A DNA stretch of 41,083 nucleotides from Candidatus Moraniibacteriota bacterium (GTDB lineage: Bacteria > Patescibacteriota > Minisyncoccia > Moranbacterales > UBA9337). Positions 5,040 through 30,588 of the stretch are shown in pieces. The position numbers and the translations under genes were made by a program. The notes under the pieces are model-generated. The model saw only the letters and a list, made by a program, of their open reading frames with translations. It did no database searches and had not been told where the DNA came from. Location: the NCBI GenBank assembly GCA_034003925.1, contig JAVEXR010000005.1, positions 1 to 41,083 of the forward strand, written 5' to 3'. The stretch's first letter is position 1, and each line of letters begins with the position of its first letter.

Positions 5040-7154
<2,115 letters not shown>

Positions 7155-29519: not shown

Positions 29520-29772
29520 ACTCTACAGACTTCTTATTTTTTTGTATAGCTAGCCAATAAATAAAAGACTATTATATAAAAATAGTACCTAAAAATGATA
29601 ACATAAGAAATAAGAGAAATCAAGAGCTGTAATATCGTATGAATAATATCATAGCCCAAGTCATCCAAATGCTTATTTGCCAGTCTCTTATAATTCTTTT
29701 AGTGGCGTTTCTTGCAAAAAGCACTTTAATAAAATACATCAATCTTTTCTAGATTGATGTATTTAAGATATG

Positions 29773-29852
29773 TGTTCCCTGTAAGGACTTAACCCGATAC
29801 TAACCAGATAAAAGTCCTGAAAGCTAGACACTTTCAGCTCCCCCAACGGGGC
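29773..29852 (-). ncRNA. tRNA-Lys-derived 80-nt RNA candidate, copy 1 (or tRNA pseudogene)
   Basis: It occupies the same position relative to the trailer and terminator as tRNA-Lys. See the finding for alignment blocks and folds. Confidence 0.4.
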
Positions 29853-29916
29853 TTCTCATAAAAAATACTTTAACAAAAAACATCAATCTTTTCTAGATTG
29901 ATGTATTTAAGATATG

Positions 29917-29996
29917 GGTTCCCTGTAAGGACTTAACCCGATACTAATCAGATAAAAGTCCTGAAAGCTAGACACTTTCAGCTCTCCCAACGGGGC
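29917..29996 (-). ncRNA. tRNA-Lys-derived 80-nt RNA candidate, copy 2
   Basis: As copy 1, followed on the minus strand by the hairpin at 29880-29904 and a U-run. Confidence 0.4.
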
Positions 29997-30060
29997 TTCT
30001 CATAAAAAACACTTTAACAAAAAACATCAACCTTTTCTAGATTGATGTATTTAAGATATG

Positions 30061-30140
30061 TGTTCCCTGTAAGGACTTAACCCGATACTAATCAGATAAA
30101 AGTCCTGAAAGCTAGACACTTTCAGCTCTCCTAACGGGGC
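30061..30140 (-). ncRNA. tRNA-Lys-derived 80-nt RNA candidate, copy 3
   Basis: As copy 1, followed on the minus strand by the hairpin at 30024-30048 and a U-run. Confidence 0.4.
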
Positions 30141-30162
30141 TTCTCATAAAAAACACTTTAAC

Positions 30163-30193
30163 AAAAAAACATCAACCTTTTCTAGATTGATGT
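30163..30193 (-). terminator. Rho-independent terminator of tRNA-Lys; the same element recurs in every repeat unit
   Basis: The minus-strand RNA reads ACAUCAAUC-UAGAAAA-GGUUGAUGU followed by UUUUUUU. Confidence 0.8.
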
Positions 30194-30205
30194 ATTTAAG
30201 ATATG

Positions 30206-30278
30206 TGCGCCGTGGGGGATTCGAACCCTCGACCATCAGCTTAAAAGGCTGTTGCTCTACCAACTGAGCTAACGGCGC
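30206..30278 (-). tRNA. tRNA-Lys (anticodon UUU)
   Basis: GCGCCGT TA GCTC AGTTGGTA GAGC A ACAGC CTTTTAA GCTGA TGGTC GAGGG TTCGAAT CCCCC ACGGCGC A. There is one mismatch in the anticodon stem (27-43) and one in the T stem (50-64). Confidence 0.85.
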
Positions 30279-30298
30279 ATATCATTTGATATTGTCTT

Positions 30299-30362
30299 TG
30301 CCCTTGCCAACATAAGTTTTTCCAATCGGAGAATTTACCAACTGAGACTGAATGAAGGGCGC
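30299..30362 (-). pseudogene. Decayed tRNA-Lys-like fragment upstream of the intact gene
   Basis: The plus-strand sequence TACCAACTGAGACTGAATGAAGGGCGCATAT parallels TACCAACTGAGCTAACGGCGCATAT at the real tRNA 5' end. A residual acceptor-like pairing GCCCTT/AAGGGC remains. No T arm is present. Confidence 0.4.
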
Positions 30363-30588
30363 ATATTTTTTAAAAAAATAAAATATCTCCCAAAAATGGG
30401 TTTGTCTATTTTTTATATATTTTATATCAGTTTGGTGCAAATATAGAATACTATAAAATTATATCTTTTTCAGAATAAAAGTCAACCCCGTCGGAGATTT
30501 GTGGTATATTAGGAGTATTTACCAAGAATTATTTAGTACTATTAGAGAATGGGAAATATTGTTTTTCTTTTAGATAGATGGATTTTTT

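Follow-up and report, generated by a model that had tools for sequence, protein, structure and literature searches.

The question raised by this locus is what a short tandem array placed directly behind a tRNA-Lys gene encodes, and whether it is kept as the source of a small RNA or is the debris of a duplicated tRNA gene. The array lies in a 41,083-nt contig of a Candidatus Moraniibacteriota bacterium (GenBank assembly GCA_034003925.1, contig JAVEXR010000005.1, nt 1–41,083; the whole of this stretch is called the window here), and its repeated body, designated S, is a module derived from tRNA-Lys. Comparison with related loci, which are numbered with the prefix L, suggests, with what we judge to be an even chance of being right, that S is a maintained, non-decoding RNA module with a constrained 5′ stem-loop domain, which would be expressed by read-through and would have been remodelled and tripled in the window by unequal recombination. 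S may thus be a small RNA that is being maintained and not mere debris; a neutral relic was ranked nearly as likely.

Tandem Repeats Finder detected one array only, at nt 29716–30207, with a period of 144, 3.4 copies, 96% matches and a score of 905, a signal far above chance, and thereby recovered the 144-bp head-to-tail repeat described in an earlier note on this DNA. The features of the array are all on the minus strand, where the order is promoter, leader, tRNA-like remnant, tRNA-Lys(UUU), a 65-nt flank, and three units each consisting of a 79-nt body and a 65-nt flank made up of trailer, terminator and spacer. The canonical tRNA-Lys(UUU), with no CCA encoded, is located at nt 30206–30278 (Rfam RF00005, 70.6 bits; ARAGORN, start at 30205/30206), as the same note had it, and its flank at nt 30141–30205 comprises the trailer CAUAUCUUAAAU, a terminator hairpin at nt 30169–30193 followed by a U-run (−10.2 kcal/mol), and a spacer ending in GAGAA. 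Copy A of S (nt 30062–30140) possesses a D-arm-derived 5′ end, hairpin 1 at nt 30105–30125 and a window-specific hairpin 2 at nt 30073–30105, and is followed by its flank (nt 29997–30061) with trailer, terminator (nt 30024–30048) and spacer. Copy B (nt 29918–29996) has hairpin 1 at nt 29961–29981 and hairpin 2 at nt 29929–29961; its flank (nt 29853–29917) carries an A>C change in the trailer and has a terminator at nt 29880–29904. Copy C (nt 29774–29852) has hairpin 1 at nt 29817–29837 and, at nt 29785–29817, a hairpin 2 in which an A>G change gives a G.U pair, while its flank (nt 29709–29773), with a hairpin at nt 29736–29760 (−12.6 kcal/mol) and an interrupted U-run, shares 86–89% identity with the other flanks, the homology decaying at the end of the array.

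The bodies, of 79–80 nt, share 96.2–98.7% pairwise identity. Body A is only 58.5% identical to tRNA-Lys, whereas the flank of the tRNA unit and flank A are 97% identical. The four terminator hairpins range from −10.2 to −12.6 kcal/mol, with 6–7 U after three of them. Those three (nt 30169–30193, 30024–30048 and 29880–29904) were flagged by the terminator scan; in the fourth the stem is unchanged and the U-run interrupted, hence it was not flagged. The same trailer and terminator, as claimed earlier, are present in every unit. No open reading frame of at least 40 aa was present inside the array. An array of CRISPR or guide-RNA type was ruled out, as the entire 144-bp unit repeats at 96% identity and a variable segment is absent.

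The bodies could be assigned neither to ordinary tRNAs nor to a known RNA family, in agreement with the earlier description of them as non-cloverleaf derivatives. At the gathering score of Rfam 15, only the three tRNAs of the window were matched. Against the tRNA model RF00005 (gathering score 29 bits) the S bodies gave no match even with permissive filters at E≤10, and the matches of other Rfam families over the S units in the permissive search were at chance level (E about 5–9). ARAGORN with default and -ps80 settings called tRNA-Lys and none of the bodies. No tmRNA was detected by ARAGORN -m in the window or in 96 loci collected for comparison, nor by Rfam, and an Rfam search of 15 related loci matched tRNAs only. 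In S, the acceptor stem of 7 bp is absent, with nucleotides 1–9 missing and an imperfect closing helix of 5 pairs possible in the window; the T-arm sequence of the window copies is rebuilt into hairpin 2, leaving no T arm, and the 5′ strand of the anticodon stem is taken up by hairpin 1. Because acceptor stem, T arm and anticodon stem are all absent, S would be unable to decode or to be charged.

The minimum-free-energy fold of each body on the minus strand was the two-hairpin fold proposed earlier, with z-scores of −2.5 to −3.2, against −1.7 on the plus strand; hairpin 1 consists of CUGAAAG, a loop, and CUUUCAG. Three substitutions in the bodies and one in the terminator stem distinguish the copies. 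All are A/G changes, so that minus-strand RNA retains an A-U or a G.U pair at each site, where plus-strand RNA would have an A.C mismatch. Of the four, two that are compatible with G.U pairing had been pointed out before; the other two, both in bodies, lie in a GGGAG segment whose partner in the fold of the relatives is CUUUU, so that pairing is kept there as well, and the third body substitution is that in hairpin 2. The pattern favours the minus strand, as had been argued. The bodies differ less than the flanks, with counts too small for a test.

The array is flanked by a gene for a 352-aa BNR-repeat protein, the homologues of which are assigned by their source records to Candidatus Moranbacteria (Moraniibacteriota), Patescibacteria. 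About 50 further Moranbacteria loci from species-representative genomes were compared, and the percentages given for loci are identities of their flanking protein to that of the window. Gene order, that is, pilM/N/O-like genes, tRNA-Arg plus tRNA-His, tRNA-Lys, the BNR gene and frr, is kept in relatives with 67–90% identity; further relatives reached through the flanking proteins P0003, P0005, P0014 and P0015 had contigs that stop at tRNA-Lys or lack the tRNA cluster. In one Moranbacteria clade a single copy of S lies directly behind tRNA-Lys: homologues follow tRNA-Lys and its terminator in L003 (90%), L004 (78%), L009/L096 (67%), L013 (69%), L091 and L093, and in L006 (72%) S is reduced to a 22-nt fragment. 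A metagenome scan found the exact hairpin-1 pattern in six contigs, with S abutting tRNA-Lys in 6/6, the tRNA of L096 lying beyond the contig end. The tRNA-Lys of the window is identical to that of the syntenic S-clade relatives L003, L004, L006, L009 and L013, and that of L091 differs at two paired T-stem positions.

Alignment of the S copies against tRNA-Lys (designated A4) showed that S is tRNA-Lys from the D arm on, with nucleotides 1–9 missing and with a 16–17-nt insertion between D stem and anticodon stem; the insertion pairs with the former 5′ strand of the anticodon stem to form hairpin 1. The derivation from tRNA-Lys, as claimed in the earlier note, is thereby borne out, and its view of the body as a tRNA grown by 7 nt is replaced by that of a 5′-truncated copy with an insertion. 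The note had also set the 5′ end of the body against the acceptor strand (GCCCCGTTAG against GCGCCGTTAG). The letters do match, but the 5′ end of S in all relatives is GCTCAGTYGGGAGAGC, the D arm, from which the GCCCCGTT of the window is two substitutions away; since the relatives read the D arm at this position, the likeness to the acceptor strand GCGCCGTT is not the homology. The trailer, terminator and spacer after S are the same as those after tRNA-Lys itself, and a full tRNA followed by a 5′-truncated copy with the same trailer and terminator is what a tandem duplication would leave if its left breakpoint lay where the D arm starts. In a more distant locus, L043 (about 40% flanking-protein identity), architecture and outer stem (UCAGUU with AAGCUGA) are the same and the apical hairpin, CCGCC-GAG-GCGG, is different, which is a hint of conservation at the level of structure.

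The evidence for maintenance comes from the uneven conservation of these parts. In a footprint alignment of eight lineages, a few blocks stood out as conserved: promoter, leader hairpin, tRNA, and the stretch from GAGAA through hairpin 1 that makes up the 5′ block of S. At least 7 lineages have retained this 5′ block (GAGAA, D-arm-like segment and hairpin 1), its conservation equalling that of the promoter. The spacers could not be aligned among lineages, and the terminator stems drift with compensating substitutions, from CATCAATC/GGTTGATG to CACTAATC/GGTTAGTG or CACTATCC/GGATAGTG. Because the terminators changed their sequence and the spacers are unalignable, the 5′ block is more conserved than its functional neighbour, the terminators. 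In every S-clade lineage S carries GGGAGAGC where the tRNA has GGTAGAGC, with one A/G change each in copies A and C of the window, and an S-specific T>C change is common to several lineages. In view of these fixed differences between S and tRNA, conversion from the tRNA does not explain the conservation of the 5′ block. The 3′ half of S follows the T stem of the local tRNA, being GGGGG/CCCTC in L091 and GAGGG/CCCCC in the others, which points to concerted evolution. The earlier idea of a maintained small RNA family thus stands in so far as homologues exist in relatives and their 5′ block is conserved though the spacers diverged; the 80-nt two-hairpin form and its triplication were seen in this genome alone and gain no support from the comparison.

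Upstream of the array, the sole good promoter-like site is the tRNA-Lys promoter at nt 30458–30485 (TTGACT, 16 nt, TATAAT; scan score 11/12), of which the block GGGGTTGACTTTTATT..TATAAT is kept in 8/8 aligned lineages. Between it and tRNA-Lys, a leader hairpin (AAACCC-AUUUUU-GGG in the window, nt 30366–30403), followed by a U-rich run, is kept in 7/8 lineages in the form AAACCC-N-GGG; in L003, ACGGGGTTGAC is present three times upstream. The fifth, decayed copy reported earlier exists as a degenerate tRNA-Lys-like remnant at nt 30299–30362, closed by GCCCUU/AAGGGC (fold z-score −1.8), with positional homologues in L003, L004 and L006 and a version in L091 that is better preserved, with acceptor 5′ strand, D arm and hairpin 1 still present; L009, L013, L093 and L100 have no such remnant. 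Upstream of tRNA-Lys in L091 (nt 5716–5790, plus strand) and L095 (nt 670–600, minus strand) lies an S-like copy that still has its acceptor 5′ strand (GCGCCGTTA) as well as D arm and hairpin 1 and breaks off in the T stem; hairpin-1 fragments therefore flank the functional gene on both sides.

How the array of the window arose can be proposed from its flanks. L003 has two unlike flanks, and 4/4 flanks of the window are of the kind found after S there; homogenisation has therefore affected the whole array, the terminator of the tRNA itself included, as by unequal recombination or conversion. In the lineage of the window, the 3′ half of S would have been remodelled into hairpin 2, after which unequal recombination between the 65-bp flanks would have raised the copy number of S to three and, in the same process, overwritten the trailer and terminator of the tRNA with the flank type following S in L003. 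That the derived state is older than the amplification, as had been proposed, is supported. Transcription of S would start only at the conserved tRNA-Lys promoter and proceed past the terminator of the tRNA; S would be freed when the precursor is cut at the 3′ end of the tRNA, each copy ending at its own terminator. The constrained part would be the 5′ stem-loop domain of GAGAA, D-arm-like segment and hairpin 1, which might bind a factor recognising the tRNA D arm, and the dosage of the element would be tripled in the window.

Several observations weigh against this reading. The 3′ half is evolutionarily unstable and differs between lineages: it is deleted in L013, decayed in L004 and more so in the window, and in L003, L009, L091 and L093 the T loop of S contains a 20-nt GC-rich palindrome, which L096, of the same lineage as L009, lacks. 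Hairpin 2 was not found in relatives. No covariation was detected in S, since no pair changes on both sides and shuffled controls do equally well in the pair counts from A4; hairpin 1, 98.5% paired and invariant across A4, appears neutral as to structure. Of the hairpins for which conservation had been predicted, hairpin 1 is thus shared with relatives and hairpin 2 is not, and covariation supports neither. The folds of the relatives’ S are unremarkable (z-scores −0.7 to −1.6) except in copies with the GC-rich palindrome, the D stem and outer stem of the relatives are broken in the window, and the complementarity of the outer stem (UCAG with CUGA) is partly inherited from the tRNA sequence. 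Expression raises a further difficulty. No conserved promoter was found in the flanks or spacers of S, and in L004 the U-run is followed by S after 3 nt. The idea that every spacer holds a promoter was therefore rejected, there being no spacer at all in L004, and S would be made solely by read-through from the tRNA-Lys promoter. S transcripts may then be rare, because the terminators look competent (−10 to −12.6 kcal/mol, 6–7 U), and a discrete RNA of about 80 nt per unit would depend on terminator read-through.

The palindrome CCTGCCTGCCGGCAGGCAGG and its G.U variants lie in the T loop of S at L009 4720–4743, L091 6006–6025, L093 1924–1943 and L003 4149–4168; palindromes like it were also seen at L042 7380, L027 7274 and L026 1269, being part of MITE-like elements bounded by TGTCATYCYGAG... 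terminal inverted repeats in other places of Moranbacteria genomes.

Most of these points are also what a neutral relic would leave, that is, a dead 5′-truncated tandem duplicate with palindromic insertions, of which the three copies in the window result from recent neutral unequal crossing-over with a product irrelevant to the cell; we give this a substantial chance, somewhat short of even, and the recently duplicated pseudogenes allowed for in the earlier note are live in the same sense. Copy number and 3′ half vary in every lineage, S being truncated or lost in L006 and L013; covariation is missing, hairpin 2 is restricted to the window, and S lacks its own promoter and is preceded by a competent terminator. 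The last copies in L003 and L093, which are truncated, and the single fragment left in L006 are still consensus-like though incomplete. Turnover of tRNA genes occurs in the clade, for example in the broken old tRNA-Arg of L006, and this dead gene bears a hairpin similar to hairpin 1, CU(G)AAAG..CUUU(C)AG, seen nowhere else in about 525 kb of Moranbacteria loci. At that site (L006 3860–4110, minus strand), the tRNA-Arg(TCG) that the relatives have is interrupted twice: the D loop has received a 35-nt two-tier hairpin, TCCCGT..CTAAAG-ATTA-CTTTAG..ACGGGA, and a complete new tRNA-Arg(TCG), flanked by CCCGCA/TGCGGG, replaces the anticodon loop, a nested tRNA gene replacement. Against a relic speak the 5′ block, which outlasts the adjacent functional terminators across lineages with 67–90% flanking-protein identity; the fixed differences from the tRNA, so that conversion from it cannot maintain the block; L043, which retains the architecture with a different hairpin; and the preservation of pairing by all substitutions between copies. 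That the partial copies are instead attachment-site remnants of elements or cassettes targeting tRNA-Lys, accumulated by repeated site-specific integration, is improbable. Partial 3′ copies sharing local tRNA sequence and flank are reportedly the usual signature of integration at tRNA genes (Williams, 2002), and the relatives do carry a copy of the 3′ half of the local tRNA, whose T stem it follows (L091 versus the others), together with its flank; the palindrome comes and goes in the T loop, and the tRNA-Lys cassette is inverted between close relatives and missing from the locus in L016 and L018. However, between the two copies lie only trailer, terminator and the 5′ block of S, about 110 nt, and S extends to the D arm, beyond typical attachment-site identity blocks. 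The genes within about 5 kb, in the window and in relatives, are pilM/N/O-like genes and those for the BNR-repeat protein, frr and a glycosyltransferase, with no integrase or recombinase family among the recorded Pfam families, and the open reading frames in the larger gaps between tRNA-Lys and the flanking gene of L028 and L050 matched radical SAM and GH130 and no recombinase in Pfam. Two scans of viral contigs found nothing related, the hairpin-1 pattern giving only chance matches in GC-rich coding DNA and the core of element E (see below) none, and the identical content of the units fits duplication better than independent capture.

Still less probable is an artefact of assembly in which strain variants of a single S unit were joined in tandem. 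The region does trouble short-read assemblers, two contigs from other samples with an identical flanking protein and one from a relative (84%) stopping in or next to tRNA-Lys; on the other side, the copies of the window differ at specific positions, have regular 144-bp junctions and lie inside a 41-kb contig, and tandem copies in the same slot occur in independent assemblies (two E in L033, three E in L037, and one S plus a partial S each in L093 and L003). That S is an unusual functional tRNA which lacks a D arm, has a long variable arm and uses hairpin 1 as its anticodon arm (UCU in the window) is effectively excluded. At 60% of the normal threshold (-ps60) ARAGORN calls two of the bodies tRNA-Arg(tct), and 5/7 pseudo-acceptor pairs can form; the same relaxed run makes plainly spurious calls, and both default ARAGORN and the Rfam tRNA model gave nothing. 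Hairpin 1 was rejected as an anticodon arm because its loop measures 6, 7 or 8 nt among the relatives, with variable sequence, and 3 nt in L043; position 33 would moreover be G, and the window copies lack a T arm. Taken together, the underlying observation of the earlier note is confirmed and its interpretation partly supported.

Two side observations concern the locus as assembled and its orientation. L001 (nt 1–40), L002 and L100 (nt 1–30), from other samples, are contigs that stop inside the D arm or anticodon stem of tRNA-Lys, with a flanking protein identical to that of the window in L001 and L002 and 84% identical in L100. The last base of L001 differs from the window, which suggests a branch of the assembly graph at the locus; contigs ending at tRNA-Lys fit a repeat that short reads cannot cross, and the copy number given here is provisional. 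The whole cassette of promoter, tRNA-Lys and S or E is inverted relative to its neighbours between close relatives, as in the window (nt 29700–30490) versus L006, L009, L013 and L093, and in L033 (2800–3400) versus L035 (2900–3300), where the flanks are about 90% identical and the cassette aligns in reverse at 92%.

In more distant Moranbacteria, the slot held by S is occupied by a GC-rich element of about 130 nt, designated E, which begins 4–10 nt after the terminator U-run. Its start is the reverse complement of the local tRNA T-arm plus acceptor 3′ strand, its end consists of the local acceptor 3′ strand, trailer and terminator, and it is present in one to three tandem copies. E was located at L033 2878–3239 (minus strand), L035 3072–3233 (plus), L037 2606–2937 (plus), L059 3208–3355, L036 3029–3169, L032 2618–2761, L028 568–710, L047 3266–3361 and L034 2591–2678. 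E is 94.7% paired with compensatory changes in 16/28 pairs, values reached by 0/500 shuffles, slid controls pairing at 32–43%; about 18 G.U cells favour the tRNA strand, and no match was found in Rfam. E is a candidate new RNA motif. If E acts as an RNA, it must be transcribed through the tRNA terminator, and because this covarying element sits beyond the terminator, read-through at the position after tRNA-Lys is plausible. Local alignment of S with the E copy of L032 gave p ~0.004 by shuffling and was not significant for two other E copies, and homology between S and E is regarded as unproven. More tentatively, and we regard this as possible rather than probable, S and E could be two occupants of one conserved slot, forming an undescribed class of small RNAs that read-through from the tRNA-Lys promoter would produce. 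Such RNAs would contain fragments or mimics of tRNA-Lys and be substrates or ligands of factors that handle tRNA, the S of the window being reshaped to a two-hairpin RNA with its dosage tripled.

Beside E, ‘solo’ inverted tRNA-Lys 3′ ends (for example GTGCACAGAGGGATTCGAAC) occur just after the terminator, within 60–120 nt after tRNA-Lys, in L023, L044, L045, L050, L036 and L059. Solo inverted copy, terminator and tRNA 3′ end make one long palindrome with arms of about 34 bp, which a permissive Rfam search scores like a miRNA-precursor hairpin.

Several known arrangements resemble S in part. Like the tRNA pseudogenes and partial tRNA copies produced by tandem duplication, attachment-site remnants included, S is a truncated copy that lies just downstream of the intact tRNA gene, has the same 3′ end and flank, is undetectable as tRNA and varies in copy number among relatives; unlike them, it has a 5′ block with a specific hairpin insertion that is conserved across species, starts at the D arm, has a full terminator for each copy and is accompanied by no integrase or element. 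3′ETS-leuZ of Escherichia coli, reportedly described by Lalaouna et al. in 2015, is said to be a 3′ external transcribed spacer RNA of a tRNA operon; RNAs of this kind, like S, lie between the last tRNA and a terminator, owe their release to the processing of the tRNA 3′ end and may act in their own right, whereas S lies beyond the first terminator and is itself derived from tRNA. In tmRNA, bacterial YrlA and mascRNA, tRNA-like domains keep the acceptor/T-arm module recognised by tRNA enzymes. These share with S the re-use of tRNA sequence or shape outside decoding, but the window copies of S keep neither acceptor nor T arm, and Rfam detected no tmRNA or Y RNA. No description of an S-like arrangement behind tRNA-Lys was found in literature searches, the nearest concept being tRNA-Other of Bacillus cereus, which is reported to be a pseudo-tRNA with no role in translation that affects cell physiology (PMC3399842). 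tRNA-Other is, like S, a bacterial tRNA-derived, non-decoding RNA gene for which a regulatory rather than translational role is proposed; it is a predicted pseudo-tRNA beside a genomic island, whereas S lacks acceptor stem, T arm and anticodon stem and lies in tandem behind a terminator (PMC3399842). S is set apart from these nearest concepts by its conserved hairpin insertion, by the loss of acceptor, anticodon and, in the window, T arms, and by a terminator for each copy.

The locus is a natural example of the birth, death and re-use of tRNA genes, in which tandem duplication, hairpin insertions, concerted evolution with the parent gene, cassette inversion and change of copy number are displayed together. 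The E motif, strongly covarying and absent from Rfam, merits separate study. Patescibacteria have tiny genomes and few known regulatory RNAs, and if, in this uncultivated group, the element adjacent to tRNA-Lys(UUU) is indeed kept across many species, it would be a rare lead either to regulation by RNA or to the way in which the quality of tRNA-Lys is controlled.

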